Assembly: GCA_001029635.1 (NCBI GenBank)
Contig: CP011209.1
Coordinates: 16,983 to 80,982, forward strand
Length of the DNA stretch: 64,000 nucleotides
Source: Candidatus Wolfebacteria bacterium GW2011_GWB1_47_1
Lineage (GTDB): Bacteria > Patescibacteriota > Minisyncoccia > UBA6257 > UBA9933
Direction of reading: 5' to 3'
Every line of letters begins with the position of its first letter. Position 1 is the stretch's first letter. Shown here piece after piece: positions 12,611-31,668 of the stretch. A program made the translations under genes and the position numbers. Below the pieces are notes generated by a model, which saw only the letters and a list, made by a program, of their open reading frames with translations, did no database searches and was not told the DNA's origin.

Positions 12611-12638
12611 AAAAAAAAGAGGGTGCAAGCACCCTCTT
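12611..12638 (-). terminator. Intrinsic terminator of the clpP-like gene
   Basis: AAGAGGGTGC-hairpin-GCACCCTCTT followed by a U-tract on the minus strand. Confidence 0.75.
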
Positions 12639-12646
12639 CGATAGTT

Positions 12647-13195
12647 CTACGGGATCAGGTCGATCACCTCGTCGACAAATCCCCGTTCGAGCGCTTCATA
12701 GGCGCTCATGCACATCTCGAGCTTGGAAAACCTCGTAGCCTCCTCGATCGGCTTTCCGAGTTTTGATGCGATAATCCGATATAGCATCTGTTGTCGCTTA
12801 CGGGCGCTTTTAAGCACCTCTGCAAGCTCCTCTTCGCTGTCGGTCACGCGCACCTCTGCTCGTGTATCATGAAACAGAATTTCAGCGCTTGAAAACGCTA
12901 CCCGTTTATGACACGCCTGCAGCACGATCGCGGCCGTCGAGAATGCCCGCCGATACACTACTCCTCGCACCGAAATGCTGGAATTGCGTATTAGTTCGTA
13001 CATCTGCAACCCCGCTACAACAGATCCTCCTTGGCTGTCGATGATCAGATTAACCGTTTCAAACCGCTTTACTGCATCGAGCCACATCATCGCCTTTCCA
13101 AGCTGTTCTGCCATTCTTGGCGTGACCTCTCCGCTCAGGTAGATCACACCCTTTTCGAGCATGTCTCTGAGCATTTCGCCCTCCAGTGCCGCCAC
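12647..13195 (-). CDS. clpP: Divergent ClpP-family protease subunit
   Basis: IDSQGGSV, AFSTAA (Ser), LFHD (His), MSAYEALERGFVDEV; GTG start after the SD GAAAGGAGGGG. Confidence 0.8.
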   Translation of the reverse strand: MAALEGEMLRDMLEKGVIYLSGEVTPRMAEQLGKAMMWLDAVKRFETVNLIIDSQGGSVVAGLQMYELIRNSSISVRGVVYRRAFSTAAIVLQACHKRVAFSSAEILFHDTRAEVRVTDSEEELAEVLKSARKRQQMLYRIIASKLGKPIEEATRFSKLEMCMSAYEALERGFVDEVIDLIP

Positions 13196-13328
13196 GTGCA
13201 ACCCCTCCTTTCTTTCTTCTGTTGTCTATGTGCATTGCCCGGTTGTACCCGAGGCTGTTTTGCTGTATAATGTATACAATAAATATTTAAAAATGTCAAT
13301 GTCGTGACATTACAATCATTTCATTACC

Positions 13329-13595
13329 ATGTTTGAAAAATTCTTTTCAAAACCGCGCGCCGAACATGAGGCCGCAAAAATGCAGGAAAAAATAAAGGAT
13401 GCCGGCATCACTAAGCCCACTTCTGAGGATTACGACAAGGCCGAAGAGCAAGTCGAGCAGGATATCGCAAACCGCGAAGAAGCGGCGCACGGCGAGCGCA
13501 AATACTCCGTTGATGAAAAGGGTATGGTACTCACCGACGAGGAGCGCAAACAGCGTATTGAAGAGGGCCCCGAATCACATGCCAATCAGCGATAA
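13329..13595 (+). CDS. Hypothetical small acidic protein
   Basis: 88 aa; TACAAT upstream; ends at a bidirectional terminator. Confidence 0.65.
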   Translation: MFEKFFSKPRAEHEAAKMQEKIKDAGITKPTSEDYDKAEEQVEQDIANREEAAHGERKYSVDEKGMVLTDEERKQRIEEGPESHANQR

Positions 13596-13638
13596 TCAAC
13601 AAAAAAAGACCCATTCGGGTCTTTTTTTGTTGATTATC
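13591..13638. terminator. Bidirectional intrinsic terminator
   Basis: Perfect inverted repeat GATAATCAACAAAAAAAGACCC / GGGTCTTTTTTTGTTGATTATC between convergent genes. Confidence 0.85.
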
Positions 13639-14095
13639 ACAATCCCATTTTGCTTTTGATCATGTCGCTAACCGCCTTTGAATCGGCGCGTCCCTTGATC
13701 TGGGGATTGATCTCCGCCATGACCTTGCCCATATCCTTAATCTCCTTTGCCTCTGTCTTTTCAATCGCAGCCGTCACGATCGCATCGAGCTCTTCGGTCG
13801 AAATCTCTTCCGGCAAAAACTCCTTAAAGATCACTATTTCGGCAAGCTCTACGTCTGCCAACTCCTGCCGTCCCGCTTCGGCATATACCGTAGCCGATTC
13901 ATTGCGGCGCTTTACCTCCTTCATCAATACATCGATCACATCCTCATCGCTCAACTCACCCTCGATCCCCTTTCCGCGATTCTCCACCTGTCGGTTGTTG
14001 ATCGCGTTCATTGCGAGGCGCAAGATGTTTGTGCGCTCTGATGTCCCCGCCTTCATTGATTCCTTTATTTTTTCCATCAGTTGTTCTTTGATCAT
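13637..14095 (-). CDS. GatB/YqeY domain protein
   Basis: MKAG..ILR, KEVKRRNESA..YAEAGRQELA, KDMGKVM..IKGRAD; next to rpsU. Confidence 0.93.
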   Translation of the reverse strand: MIKEQLMEKIKESMKAGTSERTNILRLAMNAINNRQVENRGKGIEGELSDEDVIDVLMKEVKRRNESATVYAEAGRQELADVELAEIVIFKEFLPEEISTEELDAIVTAAIEKTEAKEIKDMGKVMAEINPQIKGRADSKAVSDMIKSKMGL

Positions 14096-14170
14096 GCTTA
14101 TGTAAGTCGTTAGTTTGAATACTTTATTATATCACCAAACAAAAATGGCACCATAGCGGCGCCATTTTTA

Positions 14171-14380
14171 TTAGAAGGTTCCCAACTTCTTCGCTGTCTC
14201 TATCTCCGTACGCTTTTCATCGCGGTAGATCGCTGCGATCCTTCGTTTGTTCTTATTGACGGCGCGTCCACGAGTGCGTCGCTTCTTTGCCTCCTTCAAG
14301 ACGCCACTTTGTTGCATCTTCTTGGAAAAGCGGTACAGAAACGCGCTTACCGACTCACCTTCTCGACGTTTTAACTCCAT
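14171..14380 (-). CDS. rpsU: 30S ribosomal protein bS21
   Basis: ESVSAFLYRFSKKMQQSGVLKEAKKRR. Confidence 0.85.
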   Translation of the reverse strand: MELKRREGESVSAFLYRFSKKMQQSGVLKEAKKRRTRGRAVNKNKRRIAAIYRDEKRTEIETAKKLGTF

Positions 14381-14421
14381 TTGGATTGGTTAATTAAATA
14401 GTTATTGATTACTTTGATACC

Positions 14422-14829
14422 TTAAACGTTAAGGATGCGATCCTTAATGACCTTCAGCGACTCCTTAGGAGGATTTCCAACAACGCTATGGAGCGAACCC
14501 CCGCCGTCATCACGCCACCGAGGCATGATATGAATATGCAGATGGTCTATCGCTTGCCCAGCAACTTTACCATGGTTGATGCCGATTGTAAAGCCATCCG
14601 GCCCCAATGCCTTCTGCAAGGTCGCCGTCACCTTCCTAACCGCCGCAAATACCGGTTCCAGCTCTTTCTCGGGCAGATCGAGGATCGTTTCGGCATGTAT
14701 TTTTGGAATGATCATCGTGTGCCCCGGGGTGCGCGGGAAGACGTCTAATATCCCCACCACGTGGTCATCTTCATAGACGATTTCAGCCTCTCGGACCTTA
14801 TTCGCAATAGCGCAAAATAGACACTCCAT
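14422..14829 (-). CDS. HIT family hydrolase
   Basis: CLFC, GHTMIIPK, AGQAIDHLHIHIMPR. Confidence 0.95.
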   Translation of the reverse strand: MECLFCAIANKVREAEIVYEDDHVVGILDVFPRTPGHTMIIPKIHAETILDLPEKELEPVFAAVRKVTATLQKALGPDGFTIGINHGKVAGQAIDHLHIHIMPRWRDDGGGSLHSVVGNPPKESLKVIKDRILNV

Positions 14830-14918
14830 ATTTGTTGAATTTCTAATTACTAATTTATAATTTTTAAATGATCACCCAGATATTAGGTCATCCATTAATA
14901 ATCAAGCATTAGAAATTT

Positions 14919-16232
14919 TTATTTCAGTCGCTTTTTTACTTCTTCTACAATACGCTCCAAGGGTACGCTTTCTTGCGCACCCGTTTCCATATCTCTGACG
15001 ATAATACTCCCTTCGAATACCTCGCGCTGCCCCAAGATCAGAGACAACTGCGCCTGCTCCTTATCCGCTACGCGCATTTGCGACTTCAAGGAATCCTTTC
15101 CAAATGATTCGTTAATACGCACTCCGCTTTTGCGAAATTCCTCGATCAACGCTAACCCTCGCTTCTTCGCCTCATCTCCGATATGCACCAAAAACACCCT
15201 TGCGGCTCCTCTCGGCACTATGATTTTTCCACTCGCCTTCATTACTTCGATGATGCGTTCTGTGCCAAGTGCACTCCCTACTGCCGACAACTTCCCCAGC
15301 TTTAGCGTTTCAGAAAGATAATCATACCGTCCTCCTCCGCCAAGCGCAACAGAAAATCCTTCGCCAAAGAACTCGAATACCGTACGGTTGTAGTAATCCA
15401 ACCCGCGAACCAGGTACGAATCGATATAGTACGGAATCTTCACCTCATCGAGGTATTCCAATACCTTCGTGAAATGGGCTTTGCATTCCGAATCGAGATA
15501 ATCGAGAATGATTGGCGCTTCAGCCTTTACGAGCTGACATTTTTCTTCTTTGCAATCAAGAACTCGCAATGGATTTGTACTTATGCGATTTTTGCAATCC
15601 TTACAAATCTTCAACGCATTCTTTTTATAATGCGCTTCCAGCTTTTTAATGTATGTCGCGCGACACTTGTGACATCCGATGCTATTGATATGCACCGTTA
15701 CGTTTTTTATCTTCAACTCTTCAATGATCCTGAACGCGCTCATGATCGCCTGCGCATCATATACAGGATCACTTTCGGCTCCCAAAATTTCAAATCCTAC
15801 CTGATTGAACTGCCTATATCTCCCCGCCTGTGGCTGCTCATATCGAAATACCGGTCCTTCATAATAGAGCTTCATTGGTTGTCCGAACTGGCTCAACCCG
15901 TGCTGATAATAGGCACGCATGACCGCCGAGGTGAATTCCGGTCGCATCACAAGCTTATCGCCCCCCCTCGTCTTTATGACAAACATCTCCTTTTCGACAA
16001 TATCGGTCTTTGTTCCCAATCCCCGCTCGAATATGTCCGCACCTTCGAGTACCGGCGTATCGATGCGTTGGAAATTATAAAACTCACCGACGTGTTTTGT
16101 CGCTAAACGGACCTTATCCCACAATGGCTGCTCCTCCGGGAGAATGTCGTGCATCCCCTTTACGGTCTGATATGCCATCTTCTTCTCTCTCACCTTTTTT
16201 TCCTTTTTTGGAGCGGCTTCTTTTTCTGCCAT
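14919..16232 (-). CDS. hisS: Histidine--tRNA ligase
   Basis: RPEFT, FRYEQPQAGRYRQF, LVRGLDYY, GGGRYD. Confidence 0.98.
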   Translation of the reverse strand: MAEKEAAPKKEKKVREKKMAYQTVKGMHDILPEEQPLWDKVRLATKHVGEFYNFQRIDTPVLEGADIFERGLGTKTDIVEKEMFVIKTRGGDKLVMRPEFTSAVMRAYYQHGLSQFGQPMKLYYEGPVFRYEQPQAGRYRQFNQVGFEILGAESDPVYDAQAIMSAFRIIEELKIKNVTVHINSIGCHKCRATYIKKLEAHYKKNALKICKDCKNRISTNPLRVLDCKEEKCQLVKAEAPIILDYLDSECKAHFTKVLEYLDEVKIPYYIDSYLVRGLDYYNRTVFEFFGEGFSVALGGGGRYDYLSETLKLGKLSAVGSALGTERIIEVMKASGKIIVPRGAARVFLVHIGDEAKKRGLALIEEFRKSGVRINESFGKDSLKSQMRVADKEQAQLSLILGQREVFEGSIIVRDMETGAQESVPLERIVEEVKKRLK

Positions 16233-16337
16233 AAATTCGAAATATGAAAAGTGGAATATGAAAAATAAAGAAATATAATCCGTAGATTCTTACCCTCTCT
16301 TTCCCTTTTTCATTTTCCGCTTTCCTTCATTCGTGTA

Positions 16338-16889
16338 TTAGTATACCGGCTTTTCGAATGCCATTACCTGATTCAGTGGCCATAATCGAACCCATACCGA
16401 TCCGACAACCTCCGATCTCTTTAATGGCCCCCATTGCCGCGAATCAAAGCTTGCGTCCCTGTTGTCTCCCATAACAAAAAACTCATTCTCACCCAATGTA
16501 ATATCCTTTTCCCCCACGGTCACCAATTCGTTTGGCAAGTATACTTCACTCATCAATCTCCCCTCTTCGTGCTCAGGGTTATAGACATATAGGTTTCCCC
16601 CCGTCACTACTACTCGCTCGCCTGGCAAGCCAATAATGCGCTTGATAAAAAATGTCTTTTCATCCCCTGGGTAACGAAACACGACAACCTCTCCCCGCTC
16701 TGGCTCTCTGAACCGATACGAAAGTTCGTTGATCAGGATGTAATCACCTCCATGAAATGTCGGCTCCATACTCGCTCCACTTACTAAAAATGGCTGTACC
16801 AAAAAACTCCGGACGCCGAACACGACCAGCACTGCAACCAACACTATCTCTATAATCTCGCGAAGCGCGTAAAGGAATGATTTCATCAA
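16338..16889 (-). CDS. lepB: Signal peptidase I
   Basis: GASMEPT, FIKRIIGLPG, GDNRDASFDSR. Confidence 0.96.
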   Translation of the reverse strand: MMKSFLYALREIIEIVLVAVLVVFGVRSFLVQPFLVSGASMEPTFHGGDYILINELSYRFREPERGEVVVFRYPGDEKTFFIKRIIGLPGERVVVTGGNLYVYNPEHEEGRLMSEVYLPNELVTVGEKDITLGENEFFVMGDNRDASFDSRQWGPLKRSEVVGSVWVRLWPLNQVMAFEKPVY

Positions 16890-16962
16890 GTTTGCTAATT
16901 TGTTAACTTCATTTTAGTATAAACGTAGGCAATGTCAAACAGACATTTTTCTTATTTTTTCT

Positions 16963-17472
16963 ATGCAAAAGACCATTTCGTTCGCCGATCTCGATATCAT
17001 TATTGCGCTCGGCAATCCCGGCCCCGAATATACCGACACCTACCATAATGCAGGCACTCTCTTTATACGATTTCTCCGAGAATCTTCTTTCGCTACCCCT
17101 CCCACCATTGAATCACTCGGTACATTCATGAATGTCTCCGGTCCCGCTGTTGCTAGATTTCTCAAAAAGGATGGTATCAAGCCCGATCACTTTATCTTGG
17201 TCCATGACGATGTTGATATTCCCCTTGGCGAATACAAATTTTCCTTTGGGAGCGGCGCTGCTGGACATCATGGCGTGGAATCAGTCATCAACTCGCTCGG
17301 GACTAAGGACTTTTGGCGATTGCGCATCGGCATTGCAAAGCATATTACAACGCCCGATGGTACTATAATCAAAAAGAAGGCGGATACGTATGTACTCAAG
17401 CCTATTTCTCAGAAAGATCTCGAACAAATGCAGATTGTATTTGAAGAAGCGGCGAAGCAACTACAAGAATAG
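16963..17472 (+). CDS. pth: Peptidyl-tRNA hydrolase (compact)
   Basis: LGNPG..YHNAG, TFMNVSG, VHDDVD, AGHHGVES, RLRIGI. Confidence 0.93.
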   Translation: MQKTISFADLDIIIALGNPGPEYTDTYHNAGTLFIRFLRESSFATPPTIESLGTFMNVSGPAVARFLKKDGIKPDHFILVHDDVDIPLGEYKFSFGSGAAGHHGVESVINSLGTKDFWRLRIGIAKHITTPDGTIIKKKADTYVLKPISQKDLEQMQIVFEEAAKQLQE

Positions 17473-17479
17473 ACCGGGC

Positions 17480-17542
17480 TGTCATTCCCGCGGATGCGGG
17501 AATCCAGATATTATATAGATTCCCGCCTCCATGGGAATGACA
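17480..17542. repeat. TGTCATTCC...GGAATGACA palindromic (REP/RPE-like) repeat, full copy
   Basis: GTCATTCCCGCGGATGCGGGAATCCAG ... GATTCCCGCCTCCATGGGAATGAC; related copies at 19078, 20108, 29862, 33538, 37043, 37621 and 55338. Confidence 0.8.
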
Positions 17543-17623
17543 ATTTGATTTAAAATCCCCAGGGTTAGACCCTGGGGATTTTGCTCAACTTTTTACTAAC
17601 CTCGCAGACCTGTCGGCCCGGGT

Positions 17624-18085
17624 CTACGCGAAGGCAGTGGTCCCGGCGAATAAGGCTCCCTGGTCAAAACTAGCGACAATGTCGCAGCCGGGGCTCTCCC
17701 GCCCTGCCGAATTAATGGTGCCGATGGCCCGTATCATGGTCCCGGTGGCGCCGGAGAATCTTTTCTCAATAGAAGACCCTGCCGATGCCGCAGCCACGGC
17801 CGTTATAGCCGGCACGTTAACTGTTGCCTCTCCCCTGCCGCCGATTGCGATGATGGCGGTGCCTTCGCTCTTGAAGTTCGCCAGGATGACGACCCCTACT
17901 TTGAGGGTCGATGCCTCCGTATGGTTGAGCTGCGCGCTCGCCATCGCCGGGCCGGACTCTCGCTGGTCCGCCTGCTTATAAGCGATCTCCTTCTTTGACC
18001 TCTGGTCGGTAGCCACCGACGCCCATGCCGCACTGGCGAAAGCAAGTGAAACCATAAAGCACAGTAGCATGAGTACTTTTCCCAT
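17624..18085 (-). CDS. Hypothetical exported Ala/Gly-rich protein
   Basis: SD GAGGAGG before ATG 18085; signal peptide MGKVLMLLCFMVSLAFASAAWA; terminator at 17553-17582. Confidence 0.65.
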   Translation of the reverse strand: MGKVLMLLCFMVSLAFASAAWASVATDQRSKKEIAYKQADQRESGPAMASAQLNHTEASTLKVGVVILANFKSEGTAIIAIGGRGEATVNVPAITAVAAASAGSSIEKRFSGATGTMIRAIGTINSAGRESPGCDIVASFDQGALFAGTTAFA

Positions 18086-18293
18086 AAATGCCTCCTCGCT
18101 TGATAACTTCTTCGGATAGGAATTTCTACAACCCAAAACCTCCTTTTATGTTAGTGGTCGCCTTGAGCGAGCGACTACTTTTGTAAAAGACCATAATTGA
18201 ATGTATCTAATACTACATAATACATATTCCCCGGTCAAGCAAACAAAAGGCCCAGGTATCATACCTGGGCCTTTTCGCCGTTATGGCGAAATA

Positions 18294-18986
18294 CTACTTA
18301 GACGCAAAAAGGTTGAGATCCACATACCCCGTAGACATATTGATCGCTTGAGCGACTGCCTCGACGATCTCGGATACCGGGACCATCCGTTGCGGTAACA
18401 GTTCCGTCGCAGCCCCTTCATAAAAGGGGCTTCCTTCCACCGATCCCGGTGCGATGCGATGCACGTGGATGTTCCTCGGCGTGGTGAACAACGTATCCGC
18501 CCGCATCCATTTGACGAGCACCTCCTGGGCCGCTATGGAAGCGCCATACAATCTGTCGCTCAGATAATACGGAGGCTTCTCCGTTCCATCCACCGAACTG
18601 ATCACGACGATATGCCCGTCGTCGGTCATGTGCGGCACCAGCTTTGTCGCCACATGCAGAAGACCAAGACCATAAACTTCGGCGTTTTTCATGAATACCG
18701 CCGGGTCCGTATCTCGTTTTGACGTCTTCATCTCGGCCTTAAACCCTCCGGGCTCGCGATTGCCTGCCGCGTAGATGATGACGGAGGGGTTTATTTCGTT
18801 CTTCATTAACCACTCCGAGAAATCTTCTACGCTCGTTGCATCCGTTACGTCGAGTCGCAGATGTCCAAACCTCCCGCTCCTACTCGTGCCAAAGACCAGA
18901 CTTCTCCGGTCCTCTTCCTTAAGCAGTCGGTGTGTAATCGCGGACCCGATAAACCCGCCAGCCCCAATAACCAAAATGTGTTTCAT
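18294..18986 (-). CDS. Divergent SDR-family NAD(P)-binding protein
   Basis: VIGAGGFIG, LDVTD, VVISS, IAPG; the YxxxK motif reads YGASI. Confidence 0.8.
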   Translation of the reverse strand: MKHILVIGAGGFIGSAITHRLLKEEDRRSLVFGTSRSGRFGHLRLDVTDATSVEDFSEWLMKNEINPSVIIYAAGNREPGGFKAEMKTSKRDTDPAVFMKNAEVYGLGLLHVATKLVPHMTDDGHIVVISSVDGTEKPPYYLSDRLYGASIAAQEVLVKWMRADTLFTTPRNIHVHRIAPGSVEGSPFYEGAATELLPQRMVPVSEIVEAVAQAINMSTGYVDLNLFASK

Positions 18987-19138
18987 CTTTTACCTCCCTT
19001 TCAATACGTAATGATACTGATTTGTTTATAAACCATATTATTATATTAGTCAAAAAAAGCCCTTGTATTCGGCCTTCTGTTATTCCTGCGGATACGGGAA
19101 TAACAATTCATAAAAAACCACTCACATATGAGTGACTT

Positions 19139-20041: not shown

Positions 20042-20179
20042 GCCGACTATTTTTATTGTTCCGTTTTTTTGGTTAACGCGTTGATGGGTTAACGCGTTAA
20101 ATCCCTCTGTCATCCTCCCCGAAGACGCGCATCTATATACTCTGGATTCCGGCCTTCGCCGGAATGACATAAGTGGCGC

Positions 20180-21004: not shown

Positions 21005-21110
21005 TACTGTATTGTATCAGATTTTATTCTTCTTACTATATAACGACGCTAAGCGTGGCTTGTTTCCGTATTAGTATTCCTTGATTCCCATCATTATTAT
21101 TCATAAGCCA

Positions 21111-21175
21111 TTGACATGATCACTTTAAACTAGTATTCAATAATCAGCTATTATCACCTGTTTTGAGGAGGCTCT
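21111..21175 (+). promoter_or_regulatory. Conserved promoter/leader, copy 1 of 3 (others at 21603-21668 and 22069-22133)
   Basis: TTGACA-N17-TATTCA, conserved GTATTCAATAATCAGCTRTTAT block, SD GAGGAGG. Confidence 0.8.
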
Positions 21176-21553
21176 ATGTTTAGCAAACTACGAGTGGATC
21201 CACACAAGAAATGCTTGGTCAACCTACCGGAAGGATGGGTCACGTTGTTCCTAGCAAGAACCCGCGAAAGTGCATTCCTTTTCGGAGCCGTTATTGGTCT
21301 CCGGGATAAATGCCTCCCGACAGACGAGGGCATACAACGCGAAATAGGAGGATTCGCTAAAGTTCTCCAGTTCACTGTGGAAAATATCCACGTCCTCGAT
21401 GTTTATCATGGTCATAAATACCCTCAAGGTGGAGGCCTGGTTGACGTTAACCTTCTAGACAAATCTGTGATCTGGGCAGGCGTAGACGAATGCGGGCGCA
21501 ACGAATTCTTCGGCGAACGCATTCCGCTTGCTGACGTTCTCGTTACCCTCTAA
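21176..21553 (+). CDS. Hypothetical protein, tandem paralog 1
   Basis: Shares LP..WVTLFLA, AKV, HGHKY..GGG, DECG..FGERI and D(V/I)L(V/I)xL with its neighbours. Confidence 0.85.
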   Translation: MFSKLRVDPHKKCLVNLPEGWVTLFLARTRESAFLFGAVIGLRDKCLPTDEGIQREIGGFAKVLQFTVENIHVLDVYHGHKYPQGGGLVDVNLLDKSVIWAGVDECGRNEFFGERIPLADVLVTL

Positions 21554-21668
21554 GCACTTCTCCGTTTCATCTGGAGCCCTCCTTCTCGGAGGGCTTTTTT
21601 TATTGACATGCATTCGATAACTTGGTATTCAATAATCAGCTGTTATCAAACGTTTACGGGGAGACTTT

Positions 21669-22037
21669 ATGAACTTGCGCATCGTCAATGATACTATCGT
21701 CGGATTGCCTGACGGCAATACTGTTTTCTTCCTCGCCAAGGCGAACCTACACGGGGTTATCTACTGCTACGCCATATTCGGTCCCACCGCCACCTGTCTT
21801 CCAAAACCGGGAGAAACCTTTACCGAGCTGTTCGACGCAAAGGTTGCCGTCTTTCGCACCGATGGCAGCATGTACGCATTGTACTACGCACATCATGGGC
21901 ACAAATACGCCCTTGGTGGCGGTATGGTCGAGATTATCTCCGGCCGTTCCATCGTCTGGACCACTCCTGATGAATGCGGCTGTACGCGAATCTTCGGCGA
22001 GCGCATCCACCCTCGCGATATCCTTATCGCACTCTAG
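21669..22037 (+). CDS. Hypothetical protein, tandem paralog 2
   Basis: Same motifs; own promoter, SD and terminator. Confidence 0.85.
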   Translation: MNLRIVNDTIVGLPDGNTVFFLAKANLHGVIYCYAIFGPTATCLPKPGETFTELFDAKVAVFRTDGSMYALYYAHHGHKYALGGGMVEIISGRSIVWTTPDECGCTRIFGERIHPRDILIAL

Positions 22038-22133
22038 CTCAAAGCCCCGCGTATGCGGGGCTTTTTTGTTGACATCGTTTTTATAATCTGGTATTCAATA
22101 ATCAGCTATTATAAAACGCTTTGAGGAGGGTAT

Positions 22134-22514
22134 ATGTTTAAGCACCTACGCGTAAACGAACAAACAAAGTGTATCGATGGCTTGCCGAAAGAATGGGTTA
22201 CTCTTTTCCTGGCAAAGGTCTCGGCTCGGTATGGTTTGCTCACCCATTGCGCCGTCATATGCCCCGACGTACTCCTCCCTGAAAAGAATCAGTTTTACTC
22301 CTCGATCGTAGGTGCTAAAGTCGTCCTATTTAACGGAAGAGCATTCAACTTGATCGACATCATCGAAGGATACAAGGTTCGGAAAGGCGGATGCCGCGTT
22401 CAGTATATAAAGAAAGGCCTCGTCGACTTTCCAGGAGAAATCCATAGTTATGACGGGGAGCATACCTTCGAAGATCGTCTTCTTCGCCCACAGGATGTTC
22501 TTGTCGCACTTTAA
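22134..22514 (+). CDS. Hypothetical protein, tandem paralog 3
   Basis: Same motifs, more diverged; own promoter, SD and terminator. Confidence 0.85.
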   Translation: MFKHLRVNEQTKCIDGLPKEWVTLFLAKVSARYGLLTHCAVICPDVLLPEKNQFYSSIVGAKVVLFNGRAFNLIDIIEGYKVRKGGCRVQYIKKGLVDFPGEIHSYDGEHTFEDRLLRPQDVLVAL

Positions 22515-22592
22515 TCTCCTCCCCGTTTCACCCAAAAGCCCCGCTTGCGCGGGGCCTTTTTGCTTCTCTTGATTTAATCTTGCATTTCATCT

Positions 22593-22763
22593 GCGAGCTG
22601 TAAAAATAGGGGGTTAAATAGGCGAAGAAAATCTCCTCAAAAATAGAGAATCTGGGTCCCGTCCGAAGTATGGGTGATTCTCGATTTTGTTAGAGATTTT
22701 TAAGCCTATTCCCTATTTTTAATTCGCTCGCGCTTTTTGGCCTACTTTTACTAAAAAAGTAGG
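22593..22763. repeat. Long imperfect inverted repeat (~140 bp) plus a short hairpin
   Basis: GCGAGC..TAAAAATAGGG..ATAGGC..AAAATCTC..GAGAATC pairs with GATTCTC..GAGATTTT..GCCTAT..CCCTATTTTTA..GCTCGC. Confidence 0.7.
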
Positions 22764-22774
22764 GAAAAGAAAAG

Positions 22775-24469: not shown

Positions 24470-24512
24470 TGCATTGAGTGTATCGCAAACAGTTCAAAAA
24501 CTCAAAAAATCC

Positions 24513-25682
24513 TTATTTTGTGGCATTGTACATCACCTCAATCTCATTGCCCGAAAGTGGCCTATTATATACCCGCACATCATCCACCTTCCCGGTTGTC
24601 CAATATGAACCACATCCGTGCGCACCCATGCACAAATTTGCACTTACCGTGTCCGCTCCCGTGATTGCTAACGTCCCATCTAATACGCCGTTTATGTAGA
24701 CCTTTACGCCTGTATTGTCATATACTCCGACAATATGATACCAATTACCCATCGCGAGCGACGTTGCCCCATTTATGCTTTTCTGGGTACCTCCGACCGA
24801 CGCAGAATGGAAAGCCCTATTCCCCGATACATGCGTTGATAAATAAGGCAACCCAAAACTAAGGAATATATTCGCGTTTACCGCAAGTGACCCAGGATTA
24901 AACCACGCCGCCATCGTGTGTCCTTTTGAAAAATCAACGCCCGTACTTACTCCCGGGGCATTCACGGCACTGCTTCCATTAAAGCTTATCGCTCCATCCA
25001 CCTTACCGGCCGTCCACGTAGGCGATCCTATAGAAAGGATTCCATCATGCCCCCTGCCGCTACCGTCAGCTGCAACAGCGCCATTGGTTTCATCAAATGC
25101 CCAGTACCCAACAAGCCCAGACGCTTGCGCCAATAAGGATAAATTCGACCCCTGTTCGAACCGGGAAGGATCAACCCCTCCATCCTTCGCCCCATTTTGA
25201 TTGAAGTATTTATCGGATTCCAAGGTCGCAGACAATGCATATCCGCTTCCGGCAACATATGTATAATACAGTCCTTTTGTTCCGCTATTTGTCGGGTCTA
25301 TTGGCAATGTTCCTTGCGAAGCCCCCAAGCTCGCAATATCCACCGGAAGCCACCCACTTCCATCTGTCTTGAGGTAGTTTGCTGCTGTTTTACACGCATA
25401 GCTCCAAGTCGGAGGCAAGGTTGGAAGGCTCAAGTTTGCACATATCGCAGATGTATCCGGCGTTGAAACATAAACCACGTTCGCCGTCCCCATTGCCATA
25501 TTTCTGTTTTTTGCCTCCGCCAACGAAAGGGATAGTATCTGGATGTCGACGACTCTTTTCCCGTCTCTCGACTGCCTCAGCTGCTCTACTGGATTAATAG
25601 ACAGTACAGCTACGGTTGAGATGATCGCTATAATGCCAATCGAAATCAAAAGTTCCAATAATGTGAATCCGTTCCTACTCAT
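24513..25682 (-). CDS. Type IV pilin-like protein with a C-terminal LamG/ConA domain
   Basis: Class III signal GFTLLELLISIGIIA; LVGYWAFDE..WYHIVGVY..GKVDDVRVYNRPLS; start reset to 25682. Confidence 0.9.
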   Translation of the reverse strand: MSRNGFTLLELLISIGIIAIISTVAVLSINPVEQLRQSRDGKRVVDIQILSLSLAEAKNRNMAMGTANVVYVSTPDTSAICANLSLPTLPPTWSYACKTAANYLKTDGSGWLPVDIASLGASQGTLPIDPTNSGTKGLYYTYVAGSGYALSATLESDKYFNQNGAKDGGVDPSRFEQGSNLSLLAQASGLVGYWAFDETNGAVAADGSGRGHDGILSIGSPTWTAGKVDGAISFNGSSAVNAPGVSTGVDFSKGHTMAAWFNPGSLAVNANIFLSFGLPYLSTHVSGNRAFHSASVGGTQKSINGATSLAMGNWYHIVGVYDNTGVKVYINGVLDGTLAITGADTVSANLCMGAHGCGSYWTTGKVDDVRVYNRPLSGNEIEVMYNATK

Positions 25683-25824
25683 ATAACCTATTGTACCATA
25701 TCTTCTTCTTATGAAGTGCATAGTAAGACCCCTCGTACCAAAACAAATATTGACAATATTTATATTATATGATATAAATATATCAGATTCTTTCACTCTT
25801 CAGTAGTTAAAAAAGGAGACTTTT

Positions 25825-26124
25825 ATGAAATCGGAGCTCGTTATTTCGATCGACACAGGAACCCATACCAACGCAATCGGCATGAACCTTTCTCTGTTAC
25901 TGATGGCCGCAGACGGCGTCGAATTCACCGACCCTAGCAACAAAGCAGAGGAAAAGGGTCTTTCGCAGGACCTGATCAACCTCAAAAACGACCTCTTCAG
26001 AATTGTAGGGGTCAAGCGGATCTTCTTCTCGCAGAAGTCGATCACTATCATAAAAACTGACGCACCCAACAGGAAGGGTATCATCTCCGCCGCTAAACGG
26101 CGCATCCACAAATATCCCTTCTAA
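25825..26124 (+). CDS. Stand-alone Nfu/NifU N-terminal-like domain protein
   Basis: LFRIVGVKRIFFSQKSITIIK resembles the Nfu_N pattern LF.I.GV..VF....ITVTK; own promoter, SD and terminator. Confidence 0.6.
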   Translation: MKSELVISIDTGTHTNAIGMNLSLLLMAADGVEFTDPSNKAEEKGLSQDLINLKNDLFRIVGVKRIFFSQKSITIIKTDAPNRKGIISAAKRRIHKYPF

Positions 26125-26195
26125 GCCTCACCCCCAAGGGCCACGCACATGTGTGGCCCTTTTTTTTATCCCTTATTACCCATATACTCTACTTT

Positions 26196-26633
26196 ATGGA
26201 GGCCATAACCAACAAACGTGCCTATTTTGACTATGAGATCCTCGAAACCTTCGAGGCGGGCTTGGAATTGCTCGGAACGGAGGTGAAATCGGTCAAGGGT
26301 GGACGTATAAACCTTTCGAGCACCTATGTACTCCTCCGGGACGGCCAGCCAACCCTTTTTAATGCCGATATCCCACCCTATCAACCCAAGAATGCGCCTA
26401 AAGATTACAACCCCACTCGCACCCGTCGGCTCTTACTTACAGCCAAAGAAATCCAGTATTTAACAGGCAAAATCGAGGAGCGAGGGTTGACATTAGTGCC
26501 TTTGAAAGTATATACTAAGCATCAGCGAATTAAGGTTCTCGTCGGTCTCGCAAAGAGCCGAAAGGAACACGACAAGCGCGAAGCCATCAAAAAGCGTGAA
26601 GATTGGAAGCAAATCCGCAAGGATATCTTCTAA
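26196..26633 (+). CDS. smpB: SsrA-binding protein
   Basis: NKRAYFDYEILETFEAGLELLGTEVKS, RTRRLLL, DKREAIKKR. Confidence 0.97.
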   Translation: MEAITNKRAYFDYEILETFEAGLELLGTEVKSVKGGRINLSSTYVLLRDGQPTLFNADIPPYQPKNAPKDYNPTRTRRLLLTAKEIQYLTGKIEERGLTLVPLKVYTKHQRIKVLVGLAKSRKEHDKREAIKKREDWKQIRKDIF

Positions 26634-26638
26634 CCCAT

Positions 26639-26980
26639 GGGGATGGCAGGCTTTGACAAAAGCGGCTCGTTGAAAAACTGCAGACCGGTCGTCATACCGC
26701 AACCTGACAAAAACCAATAACTGCCAACAAAACAGCAGTTCCTGCATTCGCTTTCGCGTAATGCAGTGTCGCCCCACCCTAAGCTTGTACGGTGGACGCG
26801 GCATCAACCCACAAGCTGGTTCAGTATCCGTGCCGTAGGCGCCTGAACGAGATTCAAATCGGCAAACTCAGTGGCGATTCGTCGGATTTTCTGCTTCTGT
26901 TTTACACTAACCCGACTATGTCTGTAGACGTCTTTCAATAACTCTTTTGGACGGGAGTTCAATTCTCCTCATCTCCACCA
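26639..26980 (+). ncRNA. ssrA: tmRNA; tag (A)ANKTAVPAFAFA at 26723-26761
   Basis: 5' GGGGATG..TTTGAC, 3' T-arm GGGAGTTCAATTCTCC and CATCTCCACCA; ATAACT-GCC resume context; directly after smpB. Confidence 0.95.
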
Positions 26981-27005
26981 TCATTCACACTAACCAAACA
27001 CTGAT

Positions 27006-27512
27006 TTGGAACAACCACTTCGACTTAACCATCAAATAAAGGCACCTGAATTACGCGTCGTTGACGAGCAGGGAGAATTCCTCGGTATATTCTCACTCTC
27101 GGAAGCATTGCGGATTGCGGACGAAAAGGAACTTGATCTCATCGAGATCGCCCCGAATGCAAAACCGCCAGTCGCAAAGATCATCGACTTCGATAAATTC
27201 CGGTATCAGCGTGAGAAGGAAATGAAGAAGCAGCGCGCTCAACAAAAGACGAGCGAGCTGAAACAGATCAGATTTGGAGCCCGCGCGGCAAAAAACGATA
27301 TGGAGATCAAAATCAAGCAGATCGACAAATTCGTAAACGATGGCCATAAAGTAGAGATCATGCTCGTCCTCAAGGGACGCGAGAAGTACAACAGGGAATG
27401 GGCCTTCCAACGATTAAAGGAGTTCCTTGCCATGATCCCGTTTGAATATAAAACCATCGTCGAGCCGAAATTCGGCGGAAGAGGGCTATTGACCCAAATC
27501 ACCAAGAAATAA
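27006..27512 (+). CDS. infC: Translation initiation factor IF-3 (TTG start)
   Basis: LNHQIKAPELRVVD, LDLIEIAPNAKPPVAKIIDFDKFRY. Confidence 0.97.
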   Translation: MEQPLRLNHQIKAPELRVVDEQGEFLGIFSLSEALRIADEKELDLIEIAPNAKPPVAKIIDFDKFRYQREKEMKKQRAQQKTSELKQIRFGARAAKNDMEIKIKQIDKFVNDGHKVEIMLVLKGREKYNREWAFQRLKEFLAMIPFEYKTIVEPKFGGRGLLTQITKK

Positions 27513-27520
27513 TAACCACC

Positions 27521-27691
27521 ATGAAAAAGACCATCTCAAAGCGATTGCGCATCACATCGACCGGAAAGGTCCTCCGACGCGCCATGGGTCTCGGTCATAA
27601 CCGATCCCGCAAAAGTTCAACCCAGCTCCGAAGAAAGGCCAATATGCGCCTCCTTGGTGGCGCAGCATCATTGATCAGACAAAACATGTAA
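27521..27691 (+). CDS. rpmI: 50S ribosomal protein bL35
   Basis: Hand-translated MKKTISKRLRITSTGKVLRRAMGLGHNRSRKS...; between infC and rplT. Confidence 0.9.
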   Translation: MKKTISKRLRITSTGKVLRRAMGLGHNRSRKSSTQLRRKANMRLLGGAASLIRQNM

Positions 27692-27798
27692 ATTCACGGA
27701 TATCGAAGAATGGAAAACGGAATATAGGGGGTTCACTGGTTATATTTACAAACACTCCCCCCCTATTCCCTATTTCATAATTCATATTCCCTATTCTT

Positions 27799-28143
27799 AT
27801 GACACGAGTAAAACGAGGCGTACTAGCCCACAAAAAAAGAGAGAAGTTGCTCACCTACGTAAAGGGATTTAAGTGGGGACGCAAGACAAAAGAACGCGCA
27901 GCCAAGGAAGCATTGCTCCACGCTTGGAGCCACGCATTCCAGGGGCGCAAGCAGAAGAAGCGTGATTACCGAGCCCTCTGGGTGGTGCAGATCAACGCAG
28001 CTCTCCGCAACCTCGGAACGACCTATAGCAAGTTCATCGACGGAACAAAGAAGGCAAATATCCAGATCGACCGCAAGGTTCTCTCTGAGATAGCCAAGAC
28101 CGCTCCTAATACGTTTGCAAAGATCGTAGAGCAGGCAAAATAA
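27799..28143 (+). CDS. rplT: 50S ribosomal protein bL20
   Basis: MTRVKRG, KKRDYRALWVVQINAA, IDRKVLSEIA. Confidence 0.98.
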   Translation: MTRVKRGVLAHKKREKLLTYVKGFKWGRKTKERAAKEALLHAWSHAFQGRKQKKRDYRALWVVQINAALRNLGTTYSKFIDGTKKANIQIDRKVLSEIAKTAPNTFAKIVEQAK

Positions 28144-28185
28144 TAAAAATACCGACCGCTATTGTGGTCGGTATTTTTATTCATT

Positions 28186-28851
28186 TTATTCCCTCGGGAG
28201 AAAACTTGTATCTCCAAAATGTCTCAGCGCTTCATCGTTTAATATTCGCATCGCGTGAGGTTCTCTAGCTATCCATTCACCTATATACCGCTTTACTTTA
28301 TCGGAAAATAAGAGGTTCCACTGTTTTTTTATCCTGTATGCCCGCACGATATTTAATACATGTGGCTGATCGGCCAATGACCCACCTTTTAGTGGTATAT
28401 CGAGCTGCATCGTCCTCATTGCATCGTTAAATCCTTCGCATACAAAACTATTATCGGATAAATTTATACAAATGGCGTCTATGTTATAAAATGCACCATC
28501 AGCTATCTGTTCTTTCTCTTCGTTGATAATGCCCTTCTTAACTGGCCAGTGATCTTCGATACTCCATATATCAAATATGCGATCATCTATTCGCATCTTA
28601 TATCCTCCAAATCTATTCTTTGTAGCGGAGCTACCCTTCATGCACTCCTGCAAATCAGCTCCTTTACAGCACACGATCATATCAAAATCCCTTGGCTGCT
28701 TATTCTTTAATGCAATATCGCGTACTGCACCGCCAATCAAGATCACATCGCCACGGTCTTCAATGCTCCTCATAACCGCATCTAGTCGCTCATTCTCTCT
28801 CATTTTTGCAATATATGCTACAACTTTCTTTGCGTGTTCCGATGTAAACAT
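28186..28851 (-). CDS. Nucleotidyltransferase with a poly(A) polymerase/CCA-type head domain
   Basis: IGGAVRD...RDFD catalytic motif; only 221 aa; AT-rich. Confidence 0.75.
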   Translation of the reverse strand: MFTSEHAKKVVAYIAKMRENERLDAVMRSIEDRGDVILIGGAVRDIALKNKQPRDFDMIVCCKGADLQECMKGSSATKNRFGGYKMRIDDRIFDIWSIEDHWPVKKGIINEEKEQIADGAFYNIDAICINLSDNSFVCEGFNDAMRTMQLDIPLKGGSLADQPHVLNIVRAYRIKKQWNLLFSDKVKRYIGEWIAREPHAMRILNDEALRHFGDTSFLPRE

Positions 28852-29012
28852 GCCCTATTATACAATTCCTTGCGCACATTACAACGTCATTTGTAAAAAA
28901 TCTATATAGACACCCAAAGAGCTAATCCTCAAGACCTTTATTATTCCTCTTCTCCTTGATGATCAGAAACAATCAAATACTTTACCCTCTATACTAAGAC
29001 GAAAAACGGCGC

Positions 29013-29771
29013 TTATGCGCCATTTTGTTTTCGTTCTATCGGTTGTCCTTCGGATTGAGATCGATACCCTCCCCCTTGCTGTGGACGTCCCTGGTCTCGT
29101 CGTTGAGGAAACCGAGGTTGTTGCAAGGGCTGTCGTTGTAGCGGCCTTCGCTGGTCGCCTCCGCGCTGCTGTGACCCTTCCGCACGTGGACGTGGCGTCT
29201 GCGCATCTTGTTTTGGCGACGCCTCGCGCACTGGTTGCTCTCCATCTTCTTTACGCACTCCTCCTCCGATGCGCGCCGCCCGTACTCCCTGCTGTGGTCG
29301 CCGTGGGCGAATTGCCCCCTGCTTACGCAACTCGATGTTCCTCAAGAAATTATATGCCTGTTTCAAAACACGCTGACTATCTTCCTTGGTTAGTACTTTG
29401 AGCGCTTCCTTGTAGGTAAACCATCCATATCCTTCATGCTTCTCCCCTTGCGCATCGGTTTGCTCTGGTAGTTTTATCCGCTGCTGGGCCGTTTCGGCAA
29501 GATAAAATACGATCGTTTTATAGATCTTTTCCTTATTCCTCCAGAATGTGAAATTCTCCGATGTCTTGAAATTCTCATTGAATCGGAGGTCATTTCGCGT
29601 AAGGCCTGTTTCTTCCCTCACTTCGCGAACCGCTGTTTGGAAGCTTTTTTCTTCGCTTTCAATTTTCCCCTTCGGGAAGTTCCAATAGTTGTGTCCGTGA
29701 TATAAAATCAGAAAACGAGGGCCCTCCGCAGTTGTTCGGTACGCTATGATACCCGCGGAAATTTCTCGCAT
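29013..29771 (-). CDS. NUDIX hydrolase (Ap4A-hydrolase-like) with a long disordered R/Q/G/P tail
   Basis: SAG, WNFPKGKIESEEKSFQTAVREVREETG Nudix box, EKHEGYGW. Confidence 0.9.
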   Translation of the reverse strand: MREISAGIIAYRTTAEGPRFLILYHGHNYWNFPKGKIESEEKSFQTAVREVREETGLTRNDLRFNENFKTSENFTFWRNKEKIYKTIVFYLAETAQQRIKLPEQTDAQGEKHEGYGWFTYKEALKVLTKEDSQRVLKQAYNFLRNIELRKQGAIRPRRPQQGVRAARIGGGVRKEDGEQPVREASPKQDAQTPRPRAEGSQQRGGDQRRPLQRQPLQQPRFPQRRDQGRPQQGGGYRSQSEGQPIERKQNGA

Positions 29772-29923
29772 ATTGCACATACTATAGCATAGATCTGGCG
29801 GGGATACAAATTGTATAGGTTAGTCGGTTAACGCGTTAACGGGTTGGTAAATGCAGAAATACTGGATTCCGGAATGACACCGTGGGAACATAAAAAAGGG
29901 GCGGATTCTCCGCCCCTTACGTA

Positions 29924-30124
29924 TTACCTGTGATTACCCAGTGCCAACTCGGTCTGTTTTTGGATCTCCTTGGAGGCTCCCAAAATATCGGACAGTTCGT
30001 TCTCGAGCCTTGTTCGCTCGAACCGAAGCGCCTCCTCTTCTCCCGCGATCTCTCCGAATCGCTGTTCTATTACAACCACCCTCGCCTGTATCCTTTTTAC
30101 ATCTTCATCCACTAGACTTACCAT
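29924..30124 (-). CDS. Small coiled-coil orphan protein (cassette 1)
   Basis: SD GGGAGGT, own promoter and terminator. Confidence 0.7.
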   Translation of the reverse strand: MVSLVDEDVKRIQARVVVIEQRFGEIAGEEEALRFERTRLENELSDILGASKEIQKQTELALGNHR

Positions 30125-30235
30125 GTCGATTACCTCCCGCCTCTCCTGTGGTGCATTTTAAATTTCTATCGTTTGTATACCACTTTTCTATCACTTTTGC
30201 AAATCAAAAAAAGGCGGATACTCCGCCCCTTTGTC

Positions 30236-30451
30236 TTATGCCTGCGTCTCGAATATCTTATTCACCTGAATCCCTATCTGGGCAACGGACCTCCTTGTCT
30301 CCTCCAGCTCAAGTAAAAGATTGTCCCGCTCAGTGTTGCGTTGCCTTATTTCCTCTTCGATTCCTTTCAAACGAGATGCGATGGTCGTAATGCGATCTCT
30401 TACCGCTTGCGCCTCTACACTGGCGGGCGATCCAGGCCGTGTACTCGACAT
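30236..30451 (-). CDS. Small coiled-coil orphan protein (cassette 2)
   Basis: SD GGGGAGG; heptad pattern similar to cassette 1. Confidence 0.7.
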   Translation of the reverse strand: MSSTRPGSPASVEAQAVRDRITTIASRLKGIEEEIRQRNTERDNLLLELEETRRSVAQIGIQVNKIFETQA

Positions 30452-30568
30452 AAAAAATTCCTCCCCTAAGATTGGACCCCTAATTTAATTTACTATATTT
30501 TATATATCATTCCTTTGCCGATTTTGCAACAAAAAAAGGGCGGATCACTCCGCCCCCCCTGCTACCAC

Positions 30569-30931
30569 CTAACGTATCCCGAAGGACGCAATCCTACTGA
30601 GATATAGGATCCCATAAACATCTTCGCGCATCTTTTTAGACCCCCTCCCAAGACGCACCTGCCTGAATCTTTTTTCAAATTCTTCAAGCTCAGCTACCAG
30701 CGTCCAGGTTTCGTTCCAAATCTTCCGCAGCTCGTCTTCCCCGTCATCATCGTCCCAGGTCCCTTCTACAATTCGTTCCCAATGAATAGTAACCCGCCTG
30801 TCTGTGAGCCTGTACCGTCTCGAGTTTATCGCCTGCAAGACTTGCACTAGCTCGTCGAACCCGCCACCACCCGGCTCCAGGTTGTTAGTGGCCCTTCTTA
30901 ACAAGATTACACTGTCATATAATTCCGCCAT
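30569..30931 (-). CDS. Orphan helical protein (cassette 3)
   Basis: SD AAGGAGGAG before ATG 30931. Confidence 0.7.
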   Translation of the reverse strand: MAELYDSVILLRRATNNLEPGGGGFDELVQVLQAINSRRYRLTDRRVTIHWERIVEGTWDDDDGEDELRKIWNETWTLVAELEEFEKRFRQVRLGRGSKKMREDVYGILYLSRIASFGIR

Positions 30932-31035
30932 AGCAGACTCCTCCTTTTCGCTTTTATTAATTTCTACCTTCTCTATACCAACTTTCTCCCTTTTTTGCAA
31001 ATCAAAAAAAGGGCGGATCACTCCGCCCCGTTCCC

Positions 31036-31563
31036 TTACTTGCCCATGCGCCCCGCAAAGCAACTACGGACGTTCGCAATGGACTCGTCTACCGCCGCCT
31101 TTTCACTCTTGCGCGCGGCTATCTTTTCACCGAGCAATGCATACTCCCTTTCCAATTCCGGAATCAACCGGCACAGGGCCGTGTAGTAGTCCTCGGGGGT
31201 CTCCTCCTCCGCGACTACGGGCTCGATCGCGATAGGCTTCTTGCCCACCTTCCGAGGACGCTGCTTGATCGTGACAATCTCGTAGGAGATGAATATCCCC
31301 TGGTGCCATTGGTACAGCCCCGACTTCATGCGCTGGCCCGGAGCCTTGTTGAACTCGATCAACTCAAGCACCTTAGCCTCCGCAAGCACCTGGATCGTCG
31401 CCGTTACCAGACTATGGCACGGCCTGTTCTCCATCTTTGCATCCAGATGCGCATGGATCCCACGTATCCGCGATGTTGGCATTTCTTTTAGCAGTTCGAT
31501 GATCATCGCCATAACGCGCTGCTGTTTCATCGTCATACCCAGTTGCTTCTTTGCTTCGGTCAT
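31036..31563 (-). CDS. Orphan protein, possible winged helix plus coiled coil (cassette 4)
   Basis: SD GGAGGG; helix-helix-helix-wing-like N-terminus and C-terminal heptads. Confidence 0.65.
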   Translation of the reverse strand: MTEAKKQLGMTMKQQRVMAMIIELLKEMPTSRIRGIHAHLDAKMENRPCHSLVTATIQVLAEAKVLELIEFNKAPGQRMKSGLYQWHQGIFISYEIVTIKQRPRKVGKKPIAIEPVVAEEETPEDYYTALCRLIPELEREYALLGEKIAARKSEKAAVDESIANVRSCFAGRMGK

Positions 31564-31668
31564 CTATCCCTCCAATATTCCATAATGTGTAGTGCTTTTT
31601 CTTTTGTACAAATAAACAGCCCCTTTGTCAATCCAAACAAAAACACCCCGAAGGGTGTTTTTGAGCGA

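Follow-up and report, generated by a model that had tools for sequence, protein, structure and literature searches.

Shine–Dalgarno-led gene cassettes in a Patescibacteria genome whose 16S rRNA lacks an anti-Shine–Dalgarno sequence: candidates for translation by a host bacterium

Introduction

Which polymerase and which ribosome read a set of small, self-contained genes whose signals differ from those of the genes around them? This question is raised by positions 16,983 to 80,982 of contig CP011209.1 (assembly GCA_001029635.1) of Candidatus Wolfebacteria bacterium GW2011_GWB1_47_1, a stretch of 64,000 nucleotides referred to here as the window, in which ten single-gene units each carry a promoter, a strong Shine–Dalgarno sequence (SD) and a terminator of their own. 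A first-pass annotation assigned these units, here called cassettes, to a second expression grammar defined by an A as the final base in the -10 box (TANNNA), proposed that a variant sigma factor reads it, and speculated that the genes are formatted for ribosomes other than the cell's own. Here, we report that the cassettes belong to a class of about 100 SD-led genes in a genome whose single 16S rRNA gene has no anti-SD, and we see about an even chance that the ribosomes of a host bacterium, and not the cell's own, translate them.

The genome that holds the window (G000) is one contig of 984,447 bp from a 99.6% complete member of the Patescibacteria. Its 1,002 genes were called with our own hexamer-based script, so that starts and class counts are approximate; the cassette class comprises 97 genes under a strict rule and 109 under a looser one, and cassettes lie among core genes in all 20 bins of 50 kb. 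Relatives bear G-numbers, of which G301 is the congener used as the ortholog reference and G064 a relative in the same class. Counts of genomes ignore kinship, and related genomes are not independent.

An SD-led gene class without an anti-SD partner

All ten units in the window have the GGAG(G)-type SD that had been claimed for them, and throughout the genome the cassette SD takes the form AAA-GGAGG-(T/G), placed 4–8 nt before the start in 92 of 97 cases, a spacing compatible with ribosomal use. Among highly conserved genes, 142 of 147 have no SD. The 16S gene ends ...AGATTAATTAAAT after helix 45, and neither CCTCC nor CTCC occurs anywhere in it; the cell's own ribosomes thus lack the CCUCC at the 3' end that canonical SD initiation requires. 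An assembly error is made less likely by G301, whose tail is identical, and by G149, which likewise has no anti-SD. A search for a hidden or displaced anti-SD gave none: downstream of the gene the first CCTCC is reached only after about 1.4 kb, and the two GATCACCTCC sites found elsewhere do not lie in an rRNA context. Tails without CCUCCU are known in Parcubacteria, where an anti-SD is detected in only 48% (Tsurumaki et al. 2022, PMC9297842), and organisms without an anti-SD generally lack SDs (Amin et al. 2018, PMC6107228).

The cassette SDs are maintained. Reciprocal best hits in G301 were found for 17 of 109 cassettes, at a median identity of 46%, and for 520 of 758 non-SD genes, at 78%. 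Both groups are saturated at synonymous sites (proportion of synonymous differences, pS, 0.76–0.77), for which reason dN/dS could not be computed, and the nonsynonymous proportion (pN) is 0.38 for cassettes vs 0.16 for non-SD genes. Across this distance the SD is retained in 14 of the 17 cassette orthologs, while just 16 of the 520 non-SD orthologs have one.

Two side observations concern the 16S tail and the SD. G064 has an intact anti-SD, and an rpsU (bS21)-like gene in it, named by eye (L174:5191-5460, forward strand), is among its very few core genes with a strong SD, as in Flavobacterium; the ribosomes of G064 may be SD-blind. In G301 (L099), the last ~70 nt of the 16S gene plus the tail are tandemly duplicated, possibly an assembly artefact.

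Lipoproteins without processing enzymes, and other cargo

A second mismatch between signal and cell concerns lipoproteins. Across five genomes of the family, 5 of 455 SD genes encode a textbook lipobox, as against none of 2,065 non-SD genes (p=2e-4), a small count in which two of the five are orthologs and from which one further doubtful match was dropped. One lipobox is kept between orthologs at 50% identity, and one cassette lipoprotein has only three homologs, at 56–61% identity. A cassette lipoprotein of G000 lies at genome 133006-133662. Profile searches of close genomes recovered neither Lgt (31 genomes) nor LspA (21 genomes); class-wide, Lgt was found in 26 of 151 genomes, G064 not among them. 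An apparent LspA motif proved to be the end of a 441-aa protein of kinase-like appearance and was set aside. In G064, where 43 of 108 sampled genes are SD-led, the top five look-alikes of an SD-led PKD lipoprotein fall in clusters dominated by Bipolaricaulota, a lead only, obtained without alignment.

These lipoboxes also bear on the idea that translation of the cassettes happens in the parasite, on ribosomes or 30S subunits acquired from its host. Uptake would account for SDs in a cell without its own anti-SD, yet it leaves lipoboxes without Lgt or LspA unexplained, and we regard it as highly unlikely.

The remaining cargo in G000 includes a second ClpP, an SDR protein, two sigma factors, ParB, PyrF, ThyA with a downstream DHFR, a dCMP deaminase, a nucleotide kinase, NUDIX, YkuD and DUF218 proteins, an MFS transporter, a response regulator and a CDP-sugar island; G301 adds a fusion of sigma region 4 with the RNA polymerase alpha C-terminal domain (alphaCTD), a dCTP deaminase and peptidases. 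The ClpP, RpoD and ParB cassettes duplicate SD-less core genes. PHROGs matches were obtained for 4 of 97 cassettes. At L048:5601-9605 (genome 798565-802569) lies an SD-led dTTP module consisting of nucleotide kinase, ThyA-DHFR, cytidylyltransferase-like and dCMP deaminase genes. Elsewhere, a sub-threshold LpxC match (G018, L092:628-1503, reverse strand), an OmpA domain and an SLT_2 transglycosylase were seen as cargo in G018, G045 (L075) and G290 (L074); such cargo is typical of diderm envelopes.

Cassette promoters in the window and across the genome

The ten pairs of -35 and -10 boxes lie where they had been placed, with 17-nt spacers and A as the last base of the -10 in all ten; an extended TG stands at -15/-14 in six, and a hairpin with a U-run follows every stop codon. 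The units are listed below with the trinucleotide (CAG, TAG or AAG) that follows the -10 box.

12611..13299, reverse strand: ClpP-like cassette; TTGACA 13294-99, TATACA 13271-76, CAG 13263-65, predicted +1 13264, SD ~13202-09, open reading frame (ORF) 12647-13195 (182 aa), terminator ~12611-39
18240..19053, reverse strand: SDR cassette; TTGACT 19048-53, TATAAA 19025-30, CAG 19017-19, SD 18992-98, ORF 18294-18986, terminator ~18240-73
21111..21600, forward strand: orphan paralog 1; TTGACA 21111, TATTCA 21134, CAG 21145-47, SD, ORF 21176-21553, terminator
21603..22068, forward strand: orphan paralog 2; TTGACA 21603, TATTCA, CAG 21637-39, SD, ORF 21669-22037, terminator adjoining the next -35
22069..22562, forward strand: orphan paralog 3; TTGACA 22069, TATTCA, CAG 22103-05, SD, ORF 22134-22514, terminator
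25750..26167, forward strand: 99-aa cassette with weak Nfu_N resemblance; TTGACA 25750, TATAAA 25773, CAG 25784-86, SD, ORF 25825-26124, terminator
29893..30202, reverse strand: orphan cassette; TTGCAA 30197-202, TATACA, TAG 30166-68, SD, ORF 29924-30124 (66 aa), terminator
30205..30529, reverse strand: orphan cassette; TTGCAA 30524-29, TATATA, TAG 30493-95, SD, ORF 30236-30451 (71 aa), terminator
30531..31000, reverse strand: orphan cassette; TTGCAA 30995-31000, TATAGA, TAG 30964-66, SD, ORF 30569-30931 (120 aa), terminator
31005..31631, reverse strand: orphan cassette; TTGACA 31626-31, TACAAA, AAG in place of YAG, SD, ORF 31036-31563 (175 aa), terminator

These ten are not independent, comprising three tandem paralogs and a run of four with a common terminator-promoter sequence. 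TTGMMW-N17-TANNNA occurs 14 times in the window vs 6.2+-2.4 times in shuffles, and four of the 14 are not cassettes. When the A at -7 is exchanged for a YAG 5 nt past the hexamer, nine matches remain vs 0.55+-0.82 expected, all of them among the ten; the tenth unit (31631) is the one with AAG. The ClpP-like and SDR names are borne out by Pfam. The "Nfu-like" name survives as a sub-threshold resemblance to Nfu_N (E 5e-4, 20.5 bits vs a cut-off of 27), and the other seven units gave no Pfam match at 1e-4. The window's ClpP-like protein is 26% identical to the SD-less core ClpP of G000; its G302 ortholog retains the format, the base at -7 being T (TATAGT), and a wider contig search confirmed no further relatives of this cassette. 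Orphan paralog 1 has a G301 ortholog, 53% identical, that retains the cassette format. The paralog family as a whole (21176-22514) gave no Atlas feature match and no structural match above a TM score of 0.42, with an AlphaFold confidence score (pLDDT) of 47.6.

An eleventh SD-led gene was absent from the first-pass list:

17553..18238, reverse strand: TTGACC 18233-38, N17, TAGTAT 18210-15 (T at -7), ORF 17624-18085 (153 aa) with an N-terminal signal-like segment, hairpin ~17553-83

Its SD energy is -11.6, and it has no YAG at offset 34/35.

Motif learning across the genome recovered two expression grammars, associated, as the earlier reading had it, with SD and orphan status, fast evolution and private terminators. 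The 435 non-SD genes yielded TGn-TATAAT/TATACT with 99% T at -7 and a weak -35, many starts lying 6–9 nt from the box, whereas the 171 SD genes yielded TTGACA separated by 17 nt from a loosely defined -10, together with a conserved YAG. In a test independent of the learned motif, 126 of 189 SD genes had a -35 box, as did 115 of 488 others; YAG stands at offset 34/35 in 83 of the former 126 and in 3 of the latter 115 (p=5e-28). Requiring YAG removed core genes, murA, uvrA, murG and bipA among them, from the 126 first candidates. From its spacing, we infer that YAG occupies positions -1/+1/+2 of the transcript. The position of YAG is shared across the class and the phylum; in five genomes of candidate host type it is rare (12 of 74 rows, by eye).

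TANNNA does not define the class. The base at -7 among the 97 cassettes is T in 57, A in 23, C in 13 and G in 4; SD genes have A and T at -7 in a proportion of 33:34, compared with 11:32 for the other genes (p=0.017), and T-12, A-11 and T-7 occur together in only 23 of 97 cassettes. The fraction of T at -7 is 0.56–0.67 in three congeners and 0.92 in G064 (whose core-promoter comparison is based on ~112 kb only), and family f38 has TARGAT as its cassette -10, with T preserved at -7 (31 of 89 rows, by eye). The signature of a cassette is a perfect TTGAC -35, an imperfect -10, YAG, GGAGG and a private terminator. Terminators follow 84 of 97 cassettes vs 170 of 680 other genes; GC content at third codon positions (GC3) is 0.61 vs 0.51, TAG stops end 36 of 97 vs 46 of 680, and Cys makes up 1.56% vs 0.57% of residues. 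Pfam matches at E<=1e-4 were found for 20 of 97 cassettes vs 52 of 72 non-SD genes, sampled from 435, at a stricter 1e-8. In the CDP-sugar island (L011:2156-15632; genome 82555-96031), most genes have their own TTG-YAG promoter and SD, and there is no single operon promoter.

Sigma factors and possible expression wholly inside the parasite

Six genes in G000 match sigma region 2: RpoD, two tandem RpoD-like genes (genome 909660-912264) and three of ECF (extracytoplasmic function) size. The two extra RpoD-like genes, together with the fall of T at -7 to 59% in cassettes vs 99% in core promoters, are what a variant sigma specific for TANNNA would have in its favor. However, T is still the most frequent base at -7, and both proteins keep NLRLV, S-T-Y, WW and RERIRQ (regions 2 and 4.2), as judged on what we take to be the region 2 pocket residues; both are SD cassettes themselves, that is, cargo. 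Moreover, G066, G093, G122, G012 and the one-contig G077 each have 3–14 cassette matches and a single sigma region 3 match. The pattern is thus present with or without extra sigma factors, so a variant sigma is unsupported as the reader, and it would in any case leave the SD unexplained; we consider this proposal of the first-pass annotation very improbable. CarD (PF02559) had no match in G000, compared with 10 of 14 controls.

Two side observations concern sigma-related cassettes. One of the cassette sigmas (L054:1272-2651, reverse strand; genome 910852-912234) has a duplicated region 4 segment (two matches; an insertion). In G301 (L130:8884-10047, forward strand), the cassette protein fusing sigma70 region 4 with the alphaCTD is a candidate transcription-redirecting factor.

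The main rival to host translation is a regulon that would be switched on under certain conditions, such as attachment, and expressed in the parasite alone, in which RpoD reads the promoters and GGAGG acts through an RNA or protein partner or as a purine-rich leader. That RpoD can read TTGACA is plausible from the cell's rRNA promoter, TTGACA-N16-TATAAT, and a T-15 G-14 G-13 bias is common to cassette and core promoters. The cell would have a use for the nucleotide and surface-sugar enzymes that are present in single copy, and cassette codon use (NNC 0.51) is closer to that of the conserved core (0.44) than to that of SD-less accessory genes (0.30). Weighing the other way are the lack of an anti-SD partner in the 16S gene, the persistence of GGAGG in lineages with differing tails, the restriction of lipoboxes to SD genes in cells without Lgt or LspA, and the near-absence of SDs from highly conserved genes. 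On balance, we think this explanation rather doubtful.

Conservation and distribution of the grammar

The full grammar is kept in 11 of the 17 cassette orthologs in G301, where C and T replace one another at -1 and the spacers and leaders have diverged, and in-lineage paralogs at 36% identity keep the cassette signals. The strict pattern was found in 180 of 301 class genomes and 118 of 301 phylum genomes, where one or two matches per genome can be background; G000 has the most, with 54. With YAG displaced by three bases, 61 matches were obtained in 151 genomes, none in G000, vs ~249 for the true position in the same 150 relatives (hand tally). In a further hand tally, which covered the 121 listed 16S tails out of 177 relatives with a 16S match and excluded 14 partial tails, the pattern was present in 32 of the 50 genomes that lack an anti-SD and in 31 of the 57 whose anti-SD is intact. 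This similar frequency indicates that the SD is independent of the cell's own anti-SD. One orphan cassette of 81 aa without a Pfam match (L010:7980-8222, reverse strand) is 85% identical to its G302 ortholog, far above other cassettes.

Such conservation bears on whether the cassettes are moron-like relics of continual horizontal gain from SD-using donors, with their signals as passengers. The high turnover, the GC3 and stop-codon differences given above, and the commonness of horizontal gene transfer in the group (PMC12455944) all suit that history. It is weakened by the retention of signals at saturated synonymous divergence and in the paralogs at 36% identity, by a single uniform YAG grammar that many donors would be unlikely to supply, and by the few PHROGs matches and a lipoprotein with so few homologs. 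We judge it improbable.

A boxA-like leader

In 101 genomes of the class, GYTCTTTRA was found ahead of GGAGG-ATG 159 times, in 55 of the genomes; a scrambled motif gave 10 occurrences in 9 genomes. It resembles the boxA consensus GYTCTTTAANA, which in E. coli represses translation when placed beside an SD, but only with the full Nus complex on bacterial RNA polymerase (both doi:10.1101/091223). G000 itself has only a degenerate AG-N2-3-YTT at the 5' end (28 of 109 cassettes vs 9.8 shuffled). A NusB gene is encoded; a search of 31 genomes gave no Rho.

Possible translation in another cell and the route to it

Selection that retains SDs where there is no anti-SD, together with lipoboxes whose processing enzymes are missing, points to translation in another bacterial cell. 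The speculation about foreign ribosomes has thus gained support from the missing anti-SD and from lipoproteins without Lgt or LspA, and is our best reading. The route into the host is weakly constrained, with transfer of mRNA a tentative possibility and transfer of DNA an unlikely one, and the two together make up the even chance given above. We favor mRNA because the promoter grammar is lineage-wide, because it found no match in the one candidate host group tested, and because boxA stands by the SD in many relatives.

In the mRNA version, the parasite would make short messages and pass them into the host. Cassette promoters appear to depend on the -35 and core promoters on the extended -10, so that one sigma-region-4 switch could gate the whole set. 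The boxA-like leader would hold a message untranslated while it is on the polymerase making it, and a type IV secretion system (T4SS) would be the conduit. Once inside, the spare sigmas, second ClpP, response regulators, dTTP/pyrimidine enzymes, MFS transporter, envelope enzymes and lipoproteins would reprogram the host as phage early genes do. In full form, which we advance tentatively, the cassettes would amount to a dispersed second genome of 5'-AG, boxA-tagged, terminator-closed mRNAs, held untranslated in the parasite and injected through a relaxase-less T4SS for host ribosomes.

In the DNA version, parasite DNA would enter the host, whose RNA polymerase, perhaps with CarD, would read the -35-strong, -10-weak promoters. 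VirB4 and two coupling-protein-like genes are present in G000, all SD-less. CarD was not found there, while promoters lacking T at -7 are activated by CarD in alphaproteobacteria (PMC8407463), and the cassette -10 differs by lineage, as TARGAT in f38 illustrates. Cassette-borne sigmas fit DNA and mRNA alike. Against DNA transfer, promoters in five genomes of Bipolaricaulota type, the one putative host group tested, did not match the f38 cassette -10 (TAGGAT/TAAGAT in 0 of 74 rows). Most Patescibacteria T4SS clusters, in addition, lack a relaxase; the same source describes the T4SS as essential and its substrate as an open question (PMC12102498). A boxA beside the SD would, moreover, repress translation in an E. 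coli-like cell that transcribed the gene itself.

Several observations weigh against host translation by either route. Orthologs in G301 exist for no more than 17 of the 109 cassettes. BLAST with ThyA, PyrF and the CDP-sugar genes (the query did not include DHFR or dCMP deaminase) gave no SD-less paralog, so these genes may serve the cell itself. The lipobox count is small, as said above, and a divergent Lgt could escape Pfam. Membrane segments are not enriched (30 of 97 cassettes vs 258 of 680), and an argument from cofactor dependence failed: a non-SD RlmN-like radical SAM gene exists, and SufBD was not found. G000 has no exact boxA match, and the rrn leaders of G000 and G064 have no clear boxA. 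We also know of no precedent for export of mRNA by a T4SS.

If host translation is correct, the cassettes represent a strategy, not described so far, by which a cellular parasite has its genes expressed within a different cell. The grammar would mark host-directed genes and so supply a candidate list in any genome, and the cargo would point to the identity of the host, as with the Bipolaricaulota-like lipoprotein of G064. It also makes the question of T4SS substrates directly testable in a group whose exploitation of hosts is described as open (PMC12102498). Should host translation prove wrong, ~100 genes with a conserved GGAGG at a ribosome-like distance from the start, in a cell without an anti-SD, would still call for a new reader. 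The literature consulted, mostly open-access text, contains no description of an SD-led gene class, of this promoter grammar or of host translation in Patescibacteria.

Additional features of the genome

ARAGORN called a tRNA-Ile with a TAT anticodon at genome 156388-156461 and a cluster of odd tRNA-like features, including one for selenocysteine (SeC), at genome 169602-169891. Palindromic repeat families occupy window positions 17477-17545, 20125-20170, 29845-29880 and 32050-32170, with many copies in G301-G303.

Comparison with known systems

Among anti-SD-less systems, Parcubacteria are like G000 in the 16S tail, although no SD helix is expected there and the accessible text describes no SD-led gene class (PMC9297842). 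SD-blind Bacteroidia with an SD on rpsU share genome-wide SD avoidance with an SD-bearing exception; there, however, the anti-SD is present and one gene uses it, whereas in G000 the anti-SD is absent and ~100 non-core genes carry SDs (PMC7797042, PMC13000453). The CarD-activated sigma70 promoters of Alphaproteobacteria resemble cassette promoters in their strong TTG -35 and relaxed -7 (PMC8407463, PMC7703639); the cassettes differ in that no CarD was found, only accessory genes are involved, -12/-11 are relaxed as well and YAG is fixed. GYTCTTTRA within 30 nt of the SD in many class relatives, together with the NusB gene, resembles the leaders regulated by boxA and Nus factors; here, Rho was not found, many genes per genome are involved, the motif is degenerate in G000, and binding by NusB is putative. 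Integron gene cassettes are promoterless genes bounded by attC, whereas each unit here has its own promoter.

Two further systems come closest in how the cassettes might function. Phage early or takeover genes, auxiliary metabolic genes and morons are short monocistronic orphans with their own promoter, a strong SD and a terminator, and phage cargo includes sigma factors, ClpP, MazG, ThyA, DHFR, dCMP/dCTP deaminase and dNMP kinase. The cassettes are alike in format and cargo, each with its own promoter and terminator, but are dispersed among core genes, have few PHROGs matches and are kept between congeners. The cassettes are not shown to be members of this class or of that of Agrobacterium T-DNA, but would work like either if our best reading is right. 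As with T-DNA-like genes, their signals and processing needs are ones that the donor lacks, namely an SD without an anti-SD and a lipobox without Lgt or LspA, and G000 encodes T4SS components including VirB4 and coupling-protein-like genes. They differ from T-DNA in comprising ~100 units dispersed on the chromosome and in a putative host that would itself be a bacterium.

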